The notes under the pieces: model-generated
What the model saw: the letters and a program-made list of their open reading frames with translations, nothing else
Told to the model about the DNA's origin: nothing
Database searches by the model: none
In this document: positions 1 through 10,117 of the stretch, piece after piece
Layout: each line of letters opens with the position of its first letter
Position numbering within the stretch: position 1 is the stretch's first letter
Translations under genes and position numbers: made by a program
Virus genome (UHGV): UHGV-1654939
Direction: 5' to 3' (one strand)
Length of the DNA stretch: 10,117 bases
Source: a virus

Positions 1-1
1 T

Positions 2-179
2 ACTTTCGTGCTGTCGCGTATAGCAAGGGAAATATCCAGTATTCTCGACGGTATTCCTCTGTCGGTGCAGCGACGTTTTCCTGAGCTGGATAACCGGCAT
101 ATTGATTTCCTGAAACGGGATATCATCAAAGCCATGAACAAAGCAGCCGCGCTGGATGAACTGATACCGGGGTTGCTGA

Positions 180-205
<26 letters not shown>
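2..205 (+). CDS. nu1: Terminase small subunit, C-terminal part (5' end lies outside the window)
   Basis: Open frame entering from the window start (track ORF 8..205). The translation ...DNRHIDFLKRDIIKAMNKAAALDELIPGLLSEYIEQSD matches what I recall of the lambda Nu1 C-terminus. It overlaps the next gene by 26 nt (180-205), as in lambda. Confidence 0.88.
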
Positions 206-3886
<3,681 letters not shown>

Positions 3887-3906
<20 letters not shown>

Positions 3907-5206
3907 TCTCCCGCATATTGCCAGCATGGCCTTTAATGAGCCGCTGATGCTTGAACCCGCCTATGCGCGGGTTTTCTTTTGTGCGCTTGCAGGCCAGCTT
4001 GGGATCAGTCGCCTGACGGATGCGGTGTCCGGCGACAGTCTGACTGCCGGAGAGGCACCCGCGACGCTGGCGTTATCCGGTGATGATGACGGACCACGAC
4101 AGGCCCGCAGTTATCAGGTCATGAACGGCATCGCCGTGCTGCCGGTGTCCGGCACGCTGGTCAGCCGGACGCGGGCGCTGCAGCCGTATTCGGGGATGAC
4201 CGGTTACAACGGCATTATCGCCCGTCTGCAACAGGCTGCCAGCGACCCGATGGTGGACGGCATTCTGCTGGATATGGACACGCCCGGCGGAATGGTGGCA
4301 GGGGCATTTGACTGCGCTGACATCATCGCCCGTGTGCGTGACATAAAACCGGTATGGGCGCTTGCCAACGACATGAACTGCAGTGCAGGTCAGTTGCTTG
4401 CCAGTGCCGCCTCCCGGCGTCTGGTCACGCAGACCGCCCGGACAGGCTCCATCGGCGTCATGATGGCTCACAGTAATTACGGTGCTGCGCTGGAGAAACA
4501 GGGCGTGGAAATCACGCTGATTTACAGCGGCAGCCATAAGGTGGATGGCAACCCCTACAGCCATCTACCGGATGATGTCCGGGAAACACTGCAGTCCCGG
4601 ATGGATGCAACCCGCCGGATGTTTGCACAGAAGGTGTCGGCATATACCGGCCTGTCCGTGCAGGCTGTGCTGGATACCGAGGCTGCAGTGTACAGCGGTC
4701 AGGAGGCCATTGATGCCGGACTGGCTGATGAACTTGTTAACAGTACCGATGCGATCACCGTCATGCGTGATGCACTGGATGCACGTAAATCCCGTCTCTC
4801 AGGAGGGCGAATGACCAAAGAGACTCAATCAACAACTGTTTCAGCCACTGCTTCGCAGGCTGACGTTACTGACGTGGTGCCAGCGACGGAGGGCGAGAAC
4901 GCCAGCGCGGCGCAGCCGGACGTGAACGCGCAGATCACCGCAGCGGTTGCGGCAGAAAACAGCCGCATTATGGGGATCCTCAACTGTGAGGAGGCTCACG
5001 GACGCGAAGAACAGGCCCGCGTGCTGGCAGAAACCCCCGGTATGACCGTGGAAACGGCCCGCCGCATTCTGGCCGCAGCACCACAGAGTGCACAGGCGCG
5101 CAGTGACACTGCGCTGGATCGTCTGATGCAGGGGGCACCGGCACCGCTGGCTGCAGGTAACCCGGCATCTGATGCCGTTAACGATTTGCTGAACACACCA
5201 GTGTAA
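3887..5206 (+). CDS. C: Prohead protease / scaffold-processing protein gpC (S49 SppA-type peptidase), 439 aa
   Basis: Same frame as track ORF 3749..5206, but I place the start at GTG 3887-3889. It is preceded by GAGGAGG (3874-3880) and overlaps the end of B by 20 nt, giving the lambda length of 439 aa. The upstream ATG at 3749 would add 46 codons read across B in another frame. Confidence 0.88.
4601..5206 (+). CDS. nu3: Scaffolding protein Nu3, in-frame internal start within C, 201 aa
   Basis: ATG at 4601-4603 in the C frame, shared stop at 5204-5206. The translation MDATRRMFAQKVSAYTGLSVQAVLDTEAAVYSGQEAIDAGLADELV... matches lambda Nu3. The nested arrangement is established lambda biology. 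Confidence 0.75.
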   Translation: MDATRRMFAQKVSAYTGLSVQAVLDTEAAVYSGQEAIDAGLADELVNSTDAITVMRDALDARKSRLSGGRMTKETQSTTVSATASQADVTDVVPATEGENASAAQPDVNAQITAAVAAENSRIMGILNCEEAHGREEQARVLAETPGMTVETARRILAAAPQSAQARSDTALDRLMQGAPAPLAAGNPASDAVNDLLNTPV

Positions 5207-5215
5207 GGGATGTTT

Positions 5216-5548
5216 ATGACGAGCAAAGAAACCTTTACCCATTACCAGCCGCTGGGCAACAGTGACCCGGCTCATACCGCAACCGCGCCAGGCGGATTGA
5301 GTGCGAAAGCGCCTGCAATGACCCCGCTGATGCTGGACACCTCCAGCCGTAAGCTGGTTGCGTGGGATGGCACCACCGACGGTGCTGCCGTTGGCATTCT
5401 TGCAGTTGCTGCTGACCAGACCAGCACCACGCTGACGTTCTACAAGTCCGGCACGTTCCGTTATGAGGATGTGCTCTGGCCGGAGGCTGCCAGCGACGAG
5501 ACGAAAAAACGGACCGCGTTTGCCGGAACGGCAATCAGCATCGTTTAA
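5216..5548 (+). CDS. D: Head decoration protein gpD, 110 aa
   Basis: Track ORF 5210..5548. I take the second ATG (5216), giving [12 protein letters not shown]... and the lambda length of 110 aa. Confidence 0.94.
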
Positions 5549-5565
5549 CCTGACCCTTCATCACT

Positions 5566-5590
5566 AAAGGCCGCCTGTGCGGCTTTTTTT
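5566..5590 (+). terminator. GC stem-loop followed by a T-tract in the D-E intergenic spacer (terminator-like or RNA-stabilising hairpin)
   Basis: Stem GCCGC (5570-5574) and GCGGC (5579-5583) around loop CTGT, flanked by AAA on the 5' side and TTTTTTT (5584-5590) on the 3' side. A second T-run follows before the E start. Confidence 0.4.
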
Positions 5591-5603
5591 ACGGGATTTT
5601 TTT

Positions 5604-6629
5604 ATGTCGATGTACACAACCGCCCAGCTGCTGGCGGCAAATGAGCAGAAATTTAAGTTTGATCCGCTGTTTCTGCGTCTCTTTTTCCGTGAGAGCTATC
5701 CCTTCACCACGGAAAAAGTCTATCTCTCACAAATTCCGGGACTGGTAAACATGGCGCTGTACGTTTCGCCGATTGTTTCCGGTGAGGTTATCCGTTCCCG
5801 TGGCGGCTCCACCTCTGAATTTACGCCGGGATATGTCAAACCCAAGCATGAGGTGAATCCGCAGATGACCCTGCGTCGCCTGCCGGATGAAGATCCGCAG
5901 AATCTGGCGGACCCGGCTTACCGTCGCCGTCGCATCATCATGCAGAACATGCGTGACGAAGAGCTGGCCATTGCTCAGGTCGAAGAGATGCAGGCAGTTT
6001 CTGCCGTGCTCAAGGGCAAATACACCATGACCGGTGAAGCCTTCGATCCGGTTGAGGTGGATATGGGCCGCAGTGCGGCGAACAACATCACGCAGTCCGG
6101 CGGCACGGAGTGGAGCAAGCGTGACAAGTCCACGTATGACCCGACCGACGATATCGAAGCCTACGCGCTGAACGCCAGCGGTGTGGTGAATATCATCGTG
6201 TTCGATCCGAAAGGCTGGGCGCTGTTCCGTTCCTTCAAAGCCGTCAGGGAGAAGCTGGATACCCGTCGCGGCTCTCATTCCGAACTGGAGACAGCGGTAA
6301 AAGACCTGGGCAAAGCGGTGTCCTATAAGGGGATGTATGGCGATGTGGCCATCGTCGTGTATTCCGGACAGTACGTGGAAAACGGCGTCAAAAAGAACTT
6401 CCTGCCGGACAACACGATGGTGCTGGGGAACACTCAGGCACGCGGTCTGCGCACCTATGGCTGCATTCAGGATGCGGACGCACAGCGCGAAGGCATTAAC
6501 GCCTCTGCCCGTTACCCGAAAAACTGGGTGACCACCGGCGATCCGGCGCGTGAGTTCACCATGATTCAGTCAGCACCGCTGATGCTGCTGGCTGATCCTG
6601 ATGAGTTCGTGTCTGTACAACTGGCGTAA
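5604..6629 (+). CDS. E: Major capsid protein gpE, 341 aa
   Basis: Track ORF 5577..6629. The start is taken at ATG 5604 (MSMYTTAQLLAANEQKF...), giving the lambda length of 341 aa. The longer track start would run through the upstream hairpin. Confidence 0.96.
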   Translation: MSMYTTAQLLAANEQKFKFDPLFLRLFFRESYPFTTEKVYLSQIPGLVNMALYVSPIVSGEVIRSRGGSTSEFTPGYVKPKHEVNPQMTLRRLPDEDPQNLADPAYRRRRIIMQNMRDEELAIAQVEEMQAVSAVLKGKYTMTGEAFDPVEVDMGRSAANNITQSGGTEWSKRDKSTYDPTDDIEAYALNASGVVNIIVFDPKGWALFRSFKAVREKLDTRRGSHSELETAVKDLGKAVSYKGMYGDVAIVVYSGQYVENGVKKNFLPDNTMVLGNTQARGLRTYGCIQDADAQREGINASARYPKNWVTTGDPAREFTMIQSAPLMLLADPDEFVSVQLA

Positions 6630-6631
6630 TC

Positions 6632-6653
6632 ATGGCCCTTCGGGGCCATTTTC
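6632..6653 (+). terminator. Perfect 7-bp hairpin with a TTCG tetraloop in the E-FI spacer (terminator-like or mRNA-stabilising)
   Basis: ATGGCCC (6632-6638), loop TTCG (6639-6642), GGGCCAT (6643-6649), then TTTTCTCTCT. It sits immediately after the E stop (6627-6629) and before the FI ribosome-binding site GGAGG. Confidence 0.4.
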
Positions 6654-6670
6654 TCTCTGTGGAGGAGTTC

Positions 6671-7069
6671 ATGACGAAAGATGAACTGATTGCCCGTCTT
6701 CAGGAGCTGGGTGAGCAACTGAACCGCGATGTCAGTTTGACGGGAACGAAAGAAGAACTGGCGCTTCGTGTGGCAGAGCTGGAAGAGGAGCTTGATGACA
6801 CGGATGAAACTGCCGGTCAGGACACCCCTCTCAGCCGGGAAAATGTGCTGACCGGGCATGAAAATGAGGTGGTATCAGCGCAGCCGGATACCGTGATTCA
6901 GGATACGGCTGAACTGGTCACGGTCGTGGCACTGGTGACGCTGCATACTGATGCACTTCACGCCACGCGGGATGAACCTGTGGCATTTGTGCTGCCGGGA
7001 ACGGCGTTTCGTGTCTCTGCCGGTGTGGCAGCCGAAATGACAGAACGTGGCCTGGCCAGAATGCAATAA
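6671..7069 (+). CDS. FI: DNA-packaging / head assembly protein gpFI, 132 aa
   Basis: Track ORF 6632..7069. The start is taken at ATG 6671, which is preceded by GGAGGAG (6661-6667). MTKDELIARLQELGEQLNRD... matches lambda FI. Confidence 0.92.
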   Translation: MTKDELIARLQELGEQLNRDVSLTGTKEELALRVAELEEELDDTDETAGQDTPLSRENVLTGHENEVVSAQPDTVIQDTAELVTVVALVTLHTDALHATRDEPVAFVLPGTAFRVSAGVAAEMTERGLARMQ

Positions 7070-7080
7070 CGGGAGGCGCT

Positions 7081-7434
7081 GTGGCTGATTTCGATAACCT
7101 GTTCGATGCTGCCATTGCTCGCGCTGATGAAACGATACGCGGGTACATGGGAACGTCAGCCACCATGACATCCGGTGAGCAGTCCGGTGCTGTGATACGT
7201 GGTGTTTTTGATGACCCTGAAAATATCAGCTATGCCGGACAGGGCGTGCGCGTTGAAGGCTCCAGCCCGTCCCTGTTTGTCCGGACTGATGATGTGCGGC
7301 AGCTGCGGCGTGGAGACACGCTGACCATCGGTGAGGAAAACTTCTGGATAGACCGGATTTCGCCGGATGATGGCGGAAGTTGTCATCTCTGGCTTGGACG
7401 GGGCGTACCGCCTGCCGTTAACCGTCGCCGCTGA
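7081..7434 (+). CDS. FII: Head completion / head-tail connector protein gpFII, 117 aa
   Basis: Track ORF 7081..7434. The start codon is GTG, preceded by GGGAGG. MADFDNLFDAAIARADETIRGYMG... and the 117-aa length are as in lambda FII. Confidence 0.92.
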   Translation: MADFDNLFDAAIARADETIRGYMGTSATMTSGEQSGAVIRGVFDDPENISYAGQGVRVEGSSPSLFVRTDDVRQLRRGDTLTIGEENFWIDRISPDDGGSCHLWLGRGVPPAVNRRR

Positions 7435-7445
7435 AAGGGGGATGT

Positions 7446-7808
7446 ATGGCCATAAAAGGTCTTGAGCAGGCCGTTGAAAACCTCAGCCGTATCAGCAGAA
7501 CGGCGGTGCCCGGTGCCGCCGCAATGGCCATTAACCGCGTTGCTTCATCCGCGATATCGCAGTCGGTGGTACAGGTTGCCCGTGAGACAAAGGTACGCCG
7601 GAAACTGGTAAAGGAAAGGGCCAGGCTGAAAAGGGCCACGGTCAAAAATCCGCAGGCCAGAATCAAGGTTAACCGGGGGGATTTGCCCGTAATAAAGCTG
7701 GGTAACGCGCGGGTTGTCCTGTCCCGACGCAGGCGTCGTAAAAAGGGGCAGCGTTCAGCCCTGAAAGGTGGCGGCAGTGTGCTTGTGGTGGGTAGAGTCG
7801 ACTCGTAA
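7446..7808 (+). pseudogene. Z: Truncated tail-completion gene Z: about 116 lambda-like codons, then 4 unrelated codons (RVDS) and a stop
   Basis: Track ORF 7446..7808 is 120 aa, against 192 aa for lambda gpZ as I recall it. The start is 11 nt after the FII stop, as in lambda. MAIKGLEQAVENLSRIS... is Z-like up to ...GGGSVLVVG (through nt 7793), after which the frame ends at TAA 7806-7808. Confidence 0.8.
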
Positions 7809-7833
7809 GGTTAGGGATTCAGATTATGCGAAC

Positions 7834-8916
7834 ATGCAAACGCTGATTAACAGCGACACAAAACGTATATACGTTCGCTTTGTTGTTAATGGAAACTGGA
7901 CAGCGTGGAGTCAGGTTGTTGTTTCCGGATGGAATCAGGATATAACTGTCAGGTCGTTAACCACATCTAGTCCGGTAAAATCTGGCGGAGGGCGAATTGA
8001 TGTCCTTGGAAGCACGTCAGACTATAGCAAAATGGATTGCTTTGTACGTGGGTTTGATAGCACCGGTAATTCTCTCGCGTGGGCGTTGGGTTCATCAGCC
8101 GGCGTAAGTAAGATGCTGTCGCTAAAAAATTTCTTTAGCGGAGCTGAGATACTGTTAAATGGTAATGACGGCGCGGTTCAACTCAAAACAGGTGCTGTTA
8201 ACGGGGCTACAGCGCAGGCGCTCACTATCAACAGGAATGAGGTTAACTCAACCGTTGATTTAACCCTTACAAAGCAATCAGGGACTGGTAATCGTTTTGT
8301 TTTACAGAACTCAGGTAATGCAGAACTACCGTTTTCTGTCAGGGTGTGGGGTTCCAGTACTCGACAAAACGTTTTTGAGGTTGGCACGTCTGCTGCGTAT
8401 CTGTTTTATGCGCAAAAAACGTCAGCAGGCCAGTTGTTTGATGTAAATGGCGCTATTAATTGCACAACGCTGAATCAGTCATCAGACCGCGACCTTAAAG
8501 ACGATATTCTCGTTATCAGCGACGCGACGAAAGCAATCCGTAAAATGAACGGATACACCTACACGCTCAGGGAAAACGGGATGCCTTATGCTGGCGTTAT
8601 TGCACAGGAAGTAATGGAGGCGATACCAGAAGCTGTGGGATCGTTTACTCATTACGGTGAAGAGTTGCAAGGCCCGACCGTTGACGGCAACGAGCTACGC
8701 GAAGAAACGCGCTATCTTAATGTTGACTACGCCGCCGTGACGGGTTTACTTGTTCAGGTCGCCCGTGAAACAGATGATCGCGTTACCGCGCTGGAAGAGG
8801 AAAACACAACGCTACGTCAAAATCTGGCAACAGCAGACACCCGGATCAGCACTCTGGAAAATCAGGTAAGCGAACTGGTTGCACTTGTCCGGCAGTTAAC
8901 AGGAAGCGAACATTGA
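7834..8916 (+). CDS. Tail fibre C-terminal fragment: distal receptor-binding region plus intramolecular chaperone (peptidase S74-like) domain. It lacks an N-terminal tail-attachment part and may be a pseudogene.
   Basis: Track ORF 7768..8916. The first 22 codons are Z sequence read in another frame, so I take the first in-frame ATG after the junction (7834). The motif SSDRDLKDDI begins at 8479, followed by GYTYTL and a C-terminal heptad-like segment (TALEEENTTLRQNLATADTRISTLENQVSELVALV). This is the characteristic layout of self-cleaving chaperone domains of phage fibres and tailspikes. There is no convincing ribosome-binding site. Confidence 0.6.
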   Translation: MQTLINSDTKRIYVRFVVNGNWTAWSQVVVSGWNQDITVRSLTTSSPVKSGGGRIDVLGSTSDYSKMDCFVRGFDSTGNSLAWALGSSAGVSKMLSLKNFFSGAEILLNGNDGAVQLKTGAVNGATAQALTINRNEVNSTVDLTLTKQSGTGNRFVLQNSGNAELPFSVRVWGSSTRQNVFEVGTSAAYLFYAQKTSAGQLFDVNGAINCTTLNQSSDRDLKDDILVISDATKAIRKMNGYTYTLRENGMPYAGVIAQEVMEAIPEAVGSFTHYGEELQGPTVDGNELREETRYLNVDYAAVTGLLVQVARETDDRVTALEEENTTLRQNLATADTRISTLENQVSELVALVRQLTGSEH

Positions 8917-9099
8917 TATCCTTCAAGCTCTGAAGGAGGCTGTTCCCGGTACGTTCAGACTGTTGTTGAGCTGGAAATCGCAACGGAGGAAGAGAAAGCG
9001 TTACTGGCCGCATGGAAAAAGTATCGGGTGTTGCTGAACCGTGTTGATACATCAACTGCACCGGATATTGAGTGGCCTGCTGTCCCTGTTATGGAGTAA
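8917..9099 (+). pseudogene. tfa: Tail fibre assembly protein (tfa-type) 3' remnant, with no start codon of its own
   Basis: Directly after the fibre TGA (8914-8916) and in the same frame, the translation runs ...[44 protein letters not shown] to TAA 9097-9099. I recognise this ending as the conserved C-terminus of lambda-type Tfa proteins. Exactly where the tfa homology begins is not determined. Confidence 0.5.
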
Positions 9100-9443
9100 T
9101 CGTTTTGTGATATGCCGCAGACACGTCGTATGCAGGAACGTGCTGCGGCTGGCTGGTGAACTTTCAATAGTGCGAGTATTGAATGATTTCCAGCTGTTAT
9201 CGATTTTATGTGTTTTTTGCATGAGGGGATTTCCACCACCTCCCACCGACCATCTAAGACTTTATGCCACTGTCCCTAGGACTGCTATGTACTAGGAGCG
9301 GATGTTAAACTCAGACTCGTTTCAGCTACATTGCGTTTTGAATAATATTTCATCATAATAACTCTTTGAAAAATGTGATCTTTTCATTTATAACACTGAT
9401 GACTTGCTTATCTCATTGGGATATCGGAGGAGAATACTTAACT

Positions 9444-9572
9444 ATGACAAGCCCGATTATTATGACACTGGCTATATTATATAGATTGATATTAAAATGT
9501 AGGATTAGGTTCTTGCCAAGGTGTCAAGATTTACAGATAGGTTTAAAACCATATAAATATGTTTTACGGTGA
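9444..9572 (+). CDS. Hypothetical small hydrophobic peptide, 42 aa (possible single-helix membrane peptide)
   Basis: ATG 9444 is preceded by GGAGGAG (9426-9432). The peptide MTSPIIMTLAILYRLILKCRIRFLPRCQDLQIGLKPYKYVLR has a hydrophobic N-half and a basic C-half. It is the 3' part of track ORF 9366..9572. No homology is known to me, and it could be chance in AT-rich DNA. Confidence 0.2.
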   Translation: MTSPIIMTLAILYRLILKCRIRFLPRCQDLQIGLKPYKYVLR

Positions 9573-9612
9573 GATACAATACATATTGTAAGGCATAAAC
9601 GCTTGGTAAAAT
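9531..9612 (+). promoter_or_regulatory. Candidate sigma70-type promoter elements upstream of the 9637 ORF
   Basis: TTACAG (9531-9536) lies 17 nt before TAAATA (9554-9559). TTGTAA (9586-9591) lies 15 nt before TAAAAT (9607-9612). These are hexamer matches by eye in AT-rich DNA, where such matches are frequent. Confidence 0.2.
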
Positions 9613-9636
9613 TTTAATTATTGGAAGAAGCTAATC

Positions 9637-10117
9637 ATGGAACCCATATCAATTACAGTGGCAACTTATGTAGCAACTAAACTTATTGATCAATTCATCT
9701 CTCAAGAAGGATATGGTTGTATTAAGAAAGCATTATTCCCCCAAAAAAGATACGTGGATAGATTATATCAACTAATTGAAGAGACGGCAATTGAGTTTGA
9801 AGAAACATATCCAGTAGAAAGTGGAGCAATACCATTTTATCATTCCGAACCATTGTTTGAGATGTTGAATGAGCACATCTTGTTTAAAGAGTTCCCTGAC
9901 AAAGAGATATTATTAGACAAGTTCAAAGAATATCCAAGTATCACTCCCCCAACTCAACAACAACTCAGCCTTTTTTATGAGATGTTATCATTAAAAATCA
10001 ATAATTGTTCGAAGTTAAAAAAGCTACATATCGAAGAAACGTATAAAGAAAAAATATTCGATATTAATGAAGAGCTCATTCAAGTTAAACTTATTTTACG
10101 GTCTATAGATGAGAAAC
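9637..10117 (+). CDS. Hypothetical protein, N-terminal 160 aa or more (continues beyond the window); unassigned
   Basis: I translated this by hand from ATG 9637 and found no stop codon through nt 10117: MEPISITVATYVATKLIDQFISQEGYGCIKKALFPQKRYVDRLYQLIEETAIEFEETYPVESGAIPFYHSEPLFEMLNEHILFKEFPDKEILLDKFKEYPSITPPTQQQLSLFYEMLSLKINNCSKLKKLHIEETYKEKIFDINEELIQVKLILRSIDEK. It is absent from the ORF track, presumably because it has no stop in the window. A weak Shine-Dalgarno-like GGAAGAAG sits at 9623-9630. Codon usage fits the local ~32% GC. Confidence 0.6.
   Translation, partial: MEPISITVATYVATKLIDQFISQEGYGCIKKALFPQKRYVDRLYQLIEETAIEFEETYPVESGAIPFYHSEPLFEMLNEHILFKEFPDKEILLDKFKEYPSITPPTQQQLSLFYEMLSLKINNCSKLKKLHIEETYKEKIFDINEELIQVKLILRSIDEK

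Follow-up and report, generated by a model that had tools for sequence, protein, structure and literature searches.

A truncated side tail fiber gene, probably left by an internal deletion, accounts for an orphan fiber ORF in a lambdoid prophage fragment

An open reading frame (ORF) for the receptor-binding end of a phage fiber, found downstream of lambda-type head genes, most probably represents the 3' stump (codons 885 to 1258) of stf, the resident side tail fiber gene (lambda type) of an E. coli prophage, which was once full length and was truncated by an illegitimate deletion of about 14.1 kb. From the sequence comparisons below, we give this reading a probability of about 0.9. The DNA analyzed, referred to here as the window, was a 10,117-nucleotide metagenome contig of 2.8x coverage (NODE_3218, ENA ERZ773255). 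The fitting annotation for the ORF would be a truncated side tail fiber pseudogene ('stf) derived from a Z-stf deletion, neither a host-range cassette nor an independent gene.

Gene content of the window

The following features were assigned.

8-205: 3' end of nu1
180-7434, + strand: intact lambda-type head module, A, W, B, C/Nu3, D, E, FI, and FII (ORFs and Pfam families)
within 180-7434, + strand: B, portal; C/Nu3, S49 protease-scaffold
7446-7808, + strand: Z', truncated minor tail gene (Minor_tail_Z profile)
7791-7793: deletion junction Z'::'stf (blastn, three-way junction display, and strain ES2)
7792-8481, + strand: side tail fiber distal shaft and receptor-binding part, corresponding to AB66 Stf residues 885-1114
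7834-8916, + strand: the ORF as drawn in the original prediction and in the gene calls of the source assembly, with 360 aa counted from its first ATG
8392-8690, + strand: mosaic patch spanning the fiber tip and the chaperone start (differences to AB66 and mEp460)
8482-8916, + strand: Peptidase_S74 intramolecular chaperone domain with putative C-terminal coiled coil (Pfam)
8953-9100, + strand: tfa remnant, the final ~45 codons and stop, without a start codon (Caudo_TAP)
9101-9636: AT-rich spacer, GC 0.37
9637-10117, + strand: 5' end of avs2 (AVAST type 2 anti-phage gene), GC 0.32

All genes of the head module had the lengths annotated in the intact AB66 prophage, which positions 1-7792 matched at 98.1% without gaps (blastn). 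From 7792 through 10117, the DNA identity to AB66 and EcPF20 was 96.7%; avs2 is right-end cargo of this prophage family and is annotated there at the equivalent start. Scanning 7000-10117 for terminator-like sites gave none. In the same interval, sites resembling promoters were no commoner than in shuffled sequence, with none upstream of the fiber ORF, and the promoter scan found none on the + strand of 7000-9800.

Structure of the Z-stf junction

Positions 1-7792 matched the region from nu1 to Z codon 116, and positions 7792-10117 matched that from stf codon 885 to avs2. In the blastn comparison with AB66, these segments corresponded to L003 1119-8910 and L003 22996-25321, respectively; exactly 14,086 bp were absent relative to AB66, and there were no gaps elsewhere. 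Because both flanks of 7792 were collinear with one intact prophage, the orphan is attributed to an internal deletion and not to capture. A single illegitimate deletion would join Z codon 116 to stf codon 885 and remove the 3' end of Z, the first 70% of stf, and the genes between them (U, V, G, T, H, M, L, K, I, J, and lom). The parental prophage itself is represented only by AB66, which is 97 to 98% identical to the window, not identical.

The parental sequences had about 1 nt (G7792) in common at the junction. The mismatches just to its right, at 7794 and 7797, were synonymous third positions in the stf frame, and fiber-derived DNA therefore begins at 7792, with an overlap of ~1 nt with Z, and not at 7834 as drawn earlier. 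Z' consisted of 116 native codons (to 7793), followed by four codons (RVDS) and a TAA stop from out-of-frame stf DNA, giving a deletion-truncated ORF of 120 aa versus 192 aa in AB66. The reading frame changes between Z and the stump, so that Z' ends after these four foreign codons and the stump is left without a start signal of its own. The original prediction would have fallen if an in-frame fiber N terminus had been mistaken for Z; the upstream gene matched Minor_tail_Z at profile positions 1-115 of 190 (E 5.8e-41, Pfam), so it had been identified correctly. Homology to Z ended at window positions 7792-7794 in thousands of E. coli genomes.

The same junction was present in 1 of 5,426 complete E. 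coli genomes, that of strain ES2, where it was identical over 201 bp (±100 bp, 100%); only 8 differences separated ES2 from window positions 7400-8990. The ES2 junction belongs to a lambdoid prophage that adjoins the cus operon and has genes named as in DLP12 (quuD and essD). The ES2 stump has a 1-bp deletion and is called frameshifted and incomplete in RefSeq, and the ES2 head genes are likewise partly deleted. The exact junction was not found in GTDB species representatives, JGI metagenomes, or IMG/VR. In other, independent deletions, this 3' end of stf had become joined to A, nu1, or a portal/MuF-like gene, and the pattern is therefore one of routine prophage decay.

Domain content, start signals, and composition of the fiber ORF

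The frame of the ORF was open from GTG 7768, whose first eight codons are Z DNA in the wrong frame, until the stop at 8914-8916; its first ATG was at 7834. It retained residues 885-1258 of the 1,258-aa AB66 Stf; residues 1-884 were gone. In the collinear full-length Stf, Pfam placed phage_tail_N at residues 1-134 and Peptidase_S74 at residues 1115-1166. No phage_tail_N, the anchoring domain of Stf, was found in the window ORF by Pfam, in agreement with the earlier description of a fiber receptor-binding end without its tail-attachment region. The gene order also departed from that of a complete tail module, in which stf follows J and lom: Z' led straight into the stf 3' end. The 25 nt upstream of ATG 7834 (ggttagggattcagattatgcgaac) and of GTG 7768 contained no Shine-Dalgarno sequence at a proper distance, so neither start offers the fragment a translation start of its own, and the predicted lack of a ribosome-binding site was confirmed.

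Because the stump lacks an attachment domain, a ribosome-binding site, and any tail that it could join, it is regarded as a nonfunctional remnant, and it is presumably not expressed. The ORF is still intact over 360 to 382 codons, as is the whole head module; nonfunction is therefore deduced from context and not from accumulated damage. ATG 7834 lies within the putative late transcript, 25 nt past the Z' stop, and low-level re-initiation may occur there.

The GC content was 0.457 at 7792-8478 and 0.509 in the chaperone part, compared with 0.572 from A to FII, and the GC3 was 0.46 versus 0.62 to 0.68. The lower GC content than in the head genes that had been noticed earlier (0.46 versus 0.57) was thus real. 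The intact stf also falls to a GC content of 0.44 to 0.48 from nucleotide ~2100 onward: all carriers show low GC in the distal half of stf, a trait older than the deletion.

Self-cleaving chaperone domain

Peptidase_S74 (PF13884) matched ORF residues 239-290 across profile positions 1-57 of 58, scoring 47.4 bits (cutoff, 22; E 2.4e-12; Pfam), and the profile check proposed for the SDRDLKDDI-type chaperone thereby supported it. Within the SDRDLK motif, the predicted scissile and catalytic Ser is encoded at 8482-8484 and the Lys five residues on at 8497-8499, giving an intact dyad; S217, D218, L221, and K222 (numbered from the ATG) were invariant in an alignment of 21 homologs. Members of the intramolecular chaperone (IMC) family have a trimeric coiled coil, a mixed alpha-beta fold, and an Arg “folding sensor” from the neighboring chain. 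Weak coiled-coil Pfam matches were found at residues 332-380. The AF2 monomer model of the 360-aa fragment, built on the 21-sequence alignment, had a mean pLDDT of 52.8 and a pTM of 0.30, with residues 182-300 below 50; such a poor model is expected, since an obligate interdigitated trimer was modeled as a monomer. Its long C-terminal helix (residues 299-356, pLDDT ~64 to 81) is indicative only, given the low confidence of the model. NCBIfam scans of the ORF, the full-length Stf, and two homologs gave no matches.

The catalytic pair of T5 pb1, Ser1264/Lys1269, has the same Ser-x4-Lys spacing, and pb1 C-terminal fragments of similar size fold, trimerize, and self-cleave when expressed alone (PMC4690869). 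By analogy with T5 pb1 or K1F endosialidase, the C-terminal S74 domain of the intact protein would trimerize, template the folding of the fiber tip, and then cut itself at the SDRDLK Ser through the Ser-Lys dyad. A fiber with a self-cleaving chaperone should therefore need no separate Tfa.

The tfa remnant

The translation of 8917-9097 matched Caudo_TAP at profile positions 86-130 of 131 only (E 4e-21, Pfam), and the tfa frame contained no ATG-, GTG-, or TTG-initiated ORF of at least 40 aa. In related genomes, RefSeq labels the homologous stretch [quoted passage not shown] Both results uphold the tfa remnant that had been predicted after the fiber. The original prediction had pointed to an apparent contradiction between an S74 chaperone and a following tfa remnant, which is not special to this locus: stf genes of this kind are followed by that tfa stump in the intact AB66 and EcPF20 prophages, as they are in mEp460 and Ayreon, both plaque-forming phages. 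On the basis of these comparisons, the tfa scar is dated to before the deletion.

The tfa stump would most likely mark the right-hand crossover at which an IMC-type tip replaced a Tfa-dependent tip. Cassette exchange, which had been put forward as the origin of the orphan, is rejected for the orphan itself but is reasonable at this deeper level, in a lambdoid ancestor. Lambda side fibers are dispensable for plaque formation on K-12, and the viability of mEp460 and Ayreon is therefore no proof that their fibers assemble without Tfa. A tfa stump after S74-type lambdoid fibers would be read as the fixed scar of an older tip replacement, and this reading can forestall the same false paradox at the many E. 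coli loci with the module.

Relatives of the specificity region

The specificity region was present in 823 of the 5,426 complete E. coli genomes. In tblastn searches, the closest phage relatives were the Stf proteins of mEp460 (93.8% amino acid identity over ORF residues 58-382) and Ayreon (83% over residues 6-382), followed by the lateral fibers of the T5-like phage slur09 and of phage FritzHoffmann (69 to 75%; slur09, 69% over residues 58-354) and by the lateral fibers of further Escherichia and Salmonella phages of T5 size (~40% over the same residues). Weak PDB sequence similarity linked 7792-8481 to the T4 gp34 repeats. The differences to AB66 were strongly clustered, with 70 of 77 lying within 300 bp at 8392-8690. 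This patch allele was unlike those of AB66 and EcPF20, and its first part, 8392-8591, showed no differences to mEp460.

The literature on mEp460, Ayreon, FritzHoffmann, and slur09 contained no experimental receptor assignment for the fiber tip, consistent with the earlier statement that the region could not be matched to a known receptor; with its frequency in E. coli and its 94% identity to mEp460 Stf, however, the region is not exotic. A glycan receptor, either O-antigen or LPS, is presumed.

Comparison with known systems

The closest systems are the lambdoid Stf proteins of mEp460, Ayreon, AB66, and EcPF20, which have the same Peptidase_S74 C terminus and the same downstream tfa stump (96.7% DNA identity for AB66 and EcPF20), whereas the window copy lacks residues 1-884 and the J-lom context and is fused out of frame to Z'. 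RefSeq-type labels of these relatives are “prophage tail fiber N-terminal domain-containing protein” and “pyocin knob domain-containing S74 family peptidase.” A cf-PICI-like capsid-forming satellite was considered and rejected. Satellites of this type are tail-less by design and have a distinct head-gene lineage with an integrase and regulation of their own. The rejection is based on the head genes and the deletion, the integrase and regulatory region lying beyond the window: the window head genes were 98 to 99% identical to their counterparts in ordinary, complete lambdoid prophages, and the loss of the tail corresponds to one deletion.

The best PDB sequence match was the long tail fiber tip gp37 of Salmonella phage S16 (PDB 6F45, E 4.1e-5), with “...LNVSSDRRIKKDI...” aligned to “...LNQSSDRDLKDDI...” over the chaperone start. 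This likeness was confined to ~75 residues around the cleavage site, and the receptor-binding parts were unrelated. In several K-12 cryptic prophages, internal deletions have likewise spared 3' fiber or assembly gene fragments beside the right end (stfR/tfaR in Rac, tfaQ in Qin, and tfaD in DLP12). These remnants are of the Tfa-dependent type, unlike that of the window, which is of the S74/IMC type and accompanies a head module that is still complete. They can recombine with infecting lambda (PMC3945230). T5 pb1 (LtfA; PDB 4UW7 and 4UW8; PMC4690869) shares the architecture of a tip followed by a scissile Ser, a Lys at +5, and a chaperone of ~135 to 145 residues with a coiled coil, which is putative in the window ORF, but the window module belongs on a lambda-type Stf shaft. 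The receptor of pb1, the polymannose O8/O9 antigen, is not transferable to the window tip, and pb1 was not recovered from the PDB by phmmer at E ≤ 0.01.

Alternative explanations and significance

It is improbable that the stump was kept because it is useful, whether as a soluble receptor-blocking trimer after lysis or as a recombination reservoir of fiber tips. The ORF is intact and located in the late operon, but its ribosome-binding site is missing, the junction is very rare, and ES2, the sole other carrier, is already frameshifted in the stump. The pb1 C-terminal fragments, which fold alone, inhibit T5 infection by competition (PMC4690869). Lambda recombines with the Rac and Qin stf/tfa remnants, using the conserved tfa 3' region as the right-hand crossover site (PMC3945230); for the window copy, such a reservoir role would be a by-product and not a selected function. 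Retention of the same 3' end by several independent deletions might also suggest usefulness, but it is an ascertainment effect and is not taken as selection, because the fragment itself served as the query that brought these cases to light.

Intact reading frames and the pb1-fragment precedent (PMC4690869) are the evidence for a further, very improbable scenario, in which the tail-less prophage would be inducible; its heads might be joined to the tails of a co-resident lambdoid phage, and the re-initiated stump might act as a soluble receptor-blocking trimer. If so, the prophage would be a spontaneously arisen analog of capsid-forming satellites, its DNA packaged in lambda-type heads, and the released trimer would coat the glycan receptor and hinder competing phages with the same very common tip.

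Capture of a free-standing host-range cassette, made up of fiber tip and chaperone and inserted beside the head genes, was the origin initially favored and is now very doubtful. The module is mosaic and horizontally mobile, as its identity to the slur09 and FritzHoffmann lateral fibers (69 to 75%) and the internal allele patch at 8392-8690 suggest; however, everything from 7792 to the window end (stf 3' end, tfa', spacer, and avs2) is collinear, at 96.7% and gap-free, with the right arm of intact prophages, and these prophages match the left arm collinearly as well. A GC content below that of the head genes and a tfa scar from an earlier tip replacement would also suit a captured cassette, but both are already found in the intact version. 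One event, a simple deletion of the missing 14,086 bp, accounts for the structure. Finally, an assembly chimera, to which the low coverage (2.8x), the common repeats of lambdoid prophages, and the lack of the exact junction in GTDB representatives, JGI metagenomes, and IMG/VR might point, has a negligible probability, since the independently assembled complete ES2 chromosome carries the identical junction (±100 bp, 100%) and misassembly is therefore ruled out.

As the product of a deletion, the orphan is an ordinary outcome of prophage decay, of a kind already known, and has little import beyond correct annotation. It does provide a clean, datable early step of decay, in which one 14.1-kb deletion takes the tail genes and the heads stay intact, and the sister lineage in ES2 displays the steps that follow, namely, a frameshift and the loss of head genes. 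The adjoining downstream defense gene avs2 may be the reason that the right end of such prophages persists.

Organization of the window
The window, 10,117 bp long, is an entire metagenome contig (ENA ERZ773255, NODE_3218; coverage, 2.8). It carries, in order, the left-arm genes of a lambda-type late operon and the sequences that follow them:

8-205: 3' end of nu1
180-7434: head and packaging genes A (641 aa), W, B (portal), C/Nu3 (S49 protease-scaffold), D, E, FI, and FII
7446-7808: short Z, TAA at 7806-7808
7834-8916 (+): fibre ORF, open from GTG 7768, first ATG at 7834, stop at 8914-8916
8917-9097: short tfa-like stretch
9101-9636: AT-rich spacer, GC 0.37
9637-10117: avs2, 5' part (first 160 codons), GC 0.32; the contig ends within it

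The genes from A to FII were full length and gap-free relative to the prophage of strain AB66, and every tail gene was gone; the window prophage is head-complete and tail-less. Directly downstream lies avs2, a prophage cargo gene for defence that encodes an AVAST type 2 anti-phage NTPase. In the intact relatives AB66 and EcPF20, avs2 spans 4.4 kb and forms the right-end prophage cargo, immediately after the tfa stump.

A deletion between Z and stf produced the fibre stump
When 5426 complete E. coli genomes were searched, homology to Z ended at window positions 7792 to 7794 in thousands of genomes, and homology to the fibre started at 7792. One record, AB66 (NZ_OZ547461.1), contained both sides of position 7792 in a single intact prophage, with the gene order nu1, A, W, B, C, D, E, FI, FII, Z, U, V, G, T, H, M, L, K, I, J, lom, stf, tfa stump, and avs2, and with an intact stf of 1258 aa. 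Positions 1119-8910 of the AB66 locus corresponded to window 1-7792 (98.1% identity, no gaps), and positions 22996-25321 corresponded to window 7792-10117 (96.8% identity), so that exactly 14,086 bp of AB66 is missing from the window, from Z codon 116 to stf codon 885 of 1258. The original prediction of an orphan distal fibre part was confirmed; recombinational capture of a host-range cassette, as it proposed, did not create this orphan, since both flanks of this deletion are collinear with AB66. Nor was a fibre N-terminus mistaken for Z: the upstream gene matched Minor_tail_Z (positions 1-115 of 190; E, 5.8e-41) and is a real Z.

Immediately to the right of the junction, the window differs from AB66 at 7794 and 7797; both are third codon positions of stf at which the change is synonymous, indicating that fibre-derived DNA begins at 7792, with approximately 1 nt common to Z. 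This approximately 1-nt overlap of Z and stf indicates that the deletion was illegitimate and non-homologous. The junction is out of frame: truncated Z gains four foreign codons (RVDS) before the TAA, and the GTG-started ORF opens with eight codons of wrong-frame Z DNA. In intact Stf, phage_tail_N spans residues 1-134 and Peptidase_S74 spans residues 1115-1166; of this protein, the final 374 residues alone remain in the window (approximately 230 from the distal shaft and tip, 144 from the chaperone).

An assembly chimera was rejected, because the 201-bp junction was 100% identical in the complete chromosome of strain ES2, the only one of the 5426 genomes to carry it. A junction 29-mer was not found in GTDB species representatives, JGI metagenomes, or IMG/VR, and the deletion is rare. 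Across window 7400-8990, ES2 (NZ_CM184352.1) showed only eight differences, among which a 1-bp deletion at 8050 breaks the fibre frame; RefSeq labels the ES2 stump as frameshifted and incomplete, with a missing N-terminus. In the ES2 locus (7977-10809), most head genes, from truncated nu1 to FI, are gone and the tfa-stump allele is different. Given its full-length, gap-free head genes, the window represents an earlier stage of the ES2 decay lineage. The ES2 prophage remnant, which includes the DLP12-named genes quuD and essD, adjoins a vgrG gene and the cus operon.

Chaperone domain, expression signals, and function
Pfam Peptidase_S74 matched ORF residues 239-290 (E, 2.4e-12; 47.4 bits, cutoff 22), beginning precisely at SDRDLK, with Ser at 8482-8484 and Lys five residues on, at 8497-8499. 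This spacing is that of Ser1264 and Lys1269, the catalytic residues of the T5 L-shaped tail fibre pb1, which is cut between Thr1263 and Ser1264 (PMC4690869). The Ser, Asp, Leu, and Lys of the motif were invariant among 21 homologues (64-96% identity). The top PDB sequence match was the chaperone start of S16 gp37 (6F45; E, 4.1e-5); an AF2 monomer model (pLDDT, 52.8) was too poor for use. No Shine-Dalgarno sequence was found before ATG 7834 or GTG 7768, and no promoter-like site was found upstream on the + strand. Compared with 0.572 from A to FII, GC content was 0.457 at 7792-8478 and 0.509 across the chaperone, and GC3 was 0.46 versus 0.62-0.68. The predicted observations, namely, a distal fibre part with an S74 chaperone, a tfa remnant, no N-terminus, no ribosome-binding site, and lower GC, were thus all borne out, and the interpretation was partly supported.

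Lacking an attachment domain, tail, ribosome-binding site, and promoter of its own, the stump is very probably a pseudogene remnant (probability, about 0.9). Weak re-initiation at ATG 7834, 25 nt past the stop of truncated Z, is conceivable during late transcription, and fragments of pb1 of similar size fold, trimerise, self-cleave, and compete with phage adsorption (PMC4690869); this is what underlies a low-probability reading in which the stump would be translated and fold into a soluble receptor-binding domain. Overall, the feature is an unexceptional product of deletion within a fibre module that is well known and widespread.

The tfa remnant and low GC predate the deletion
The translation of 8917-9097 matched only positions 86-130 of the 131 in Caudo_TAP (E, 4e-21); only the last ~45 codons of tfa are left. 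A tfa stump also follows an stf of the same type in the intact prophages AB66 and EcPF20 and in the plaque-forming phages mEp460 and Ayreon, whose homology extends beyond stf to window 9214 and 9155, respectively; no full tfa is annotated in either phage. The combination of S74 with a tfa remnant is thus a fixed trait of the module in lambdoid genomes. Side fibres of lambda are dispensable on K-12 (lambda PaPa carries a frameshift), so the viability of mEp460 and Ayreon is no proof of Tfa-independent assembly. On the simplest reading, an IMC-type tip would once have replaced a Tfa-dependent tip plus most of tfa, with the right-hand crossover in the conserved tfa 3' end, a site shown by experiment to serve for crossover between lambda and the Rac remnant (PMC3945230). 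Matches to the T5-like phage slur09 and to phage FritzHoffmann end at ORF residues 354-355, short of the protein end and without tfa, which fits a lambdoid origin of the tfa scar. Low GC is a property of the distal fibre half in every carrier: intact stf starts at 0.55-0.63 (5' end) and drops to 0.44-0.48 beyond nucleotide ~2100.

Distribution and mosaicism of the fibre tip
The specificity region (7840-8470) was present in 823 of the 5426 genomes, and in 770 of these its coverage reached 80% or more. A protein search returned 309 homologues at an E value of ≤1e-5; all 120 listed with a source name were from E. coli, and their names included "tail fiber domain-containing protein" and "pyocin knob domain-containing S74 family peptidase." Amino acid identity to the ORF was 93.8% for mEp460, 83% for Ayreon, 75% for FritzHoffmann, 69% for slur09, and ~40% for lateral fibres of other T5-sized Escherichia and Salmonella phages. 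Of 77 differences to AB66, 70 fall within 8392-8690, a patch that also differs from EcPF20; mEp460 has no differences over 8392-8591. This identity marks a recombination patch across the fibre tip and chaperone start, and its sharpness places breakpoints inside the S74 module, not just at its borders. The literature searchable here assigns no experimental receptor to this tip; pb1 and further lateral fibres suggest, by analogy, that a surface glycan is the most likely receptor.

Three other independent deletion fusions retained the stf 3' end: an in-frame A'::'stf of 619 aa (P0095; L010 7001-8857), a portal/MuF-like::'stf ORF in 18 contigs (P0119; L008 7001-7933), and nu1::'stf with a tfa stump at the bio (lambda attB) locus of CUVET25-1155 (L007 6493-7889). 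They match the kind of fibre remnant long familiar from cryptic lambdoid prophages and, having been found by searching with the fragment itself, are uninformative on selection. In EcPF20 (L002 6349-10125), the annotation divides a stf that is otherwise intact into an N-terminal pseudogene and a 267-aa protein of its own, named "tail fiber domain-containing protein." Many homologues in the databases have a length of 619-626 aa, not ~1258 aa. Together these cases suggest that the Ala/Ser-rich repeat region of such fibres is often frameshifted or split by annotation.
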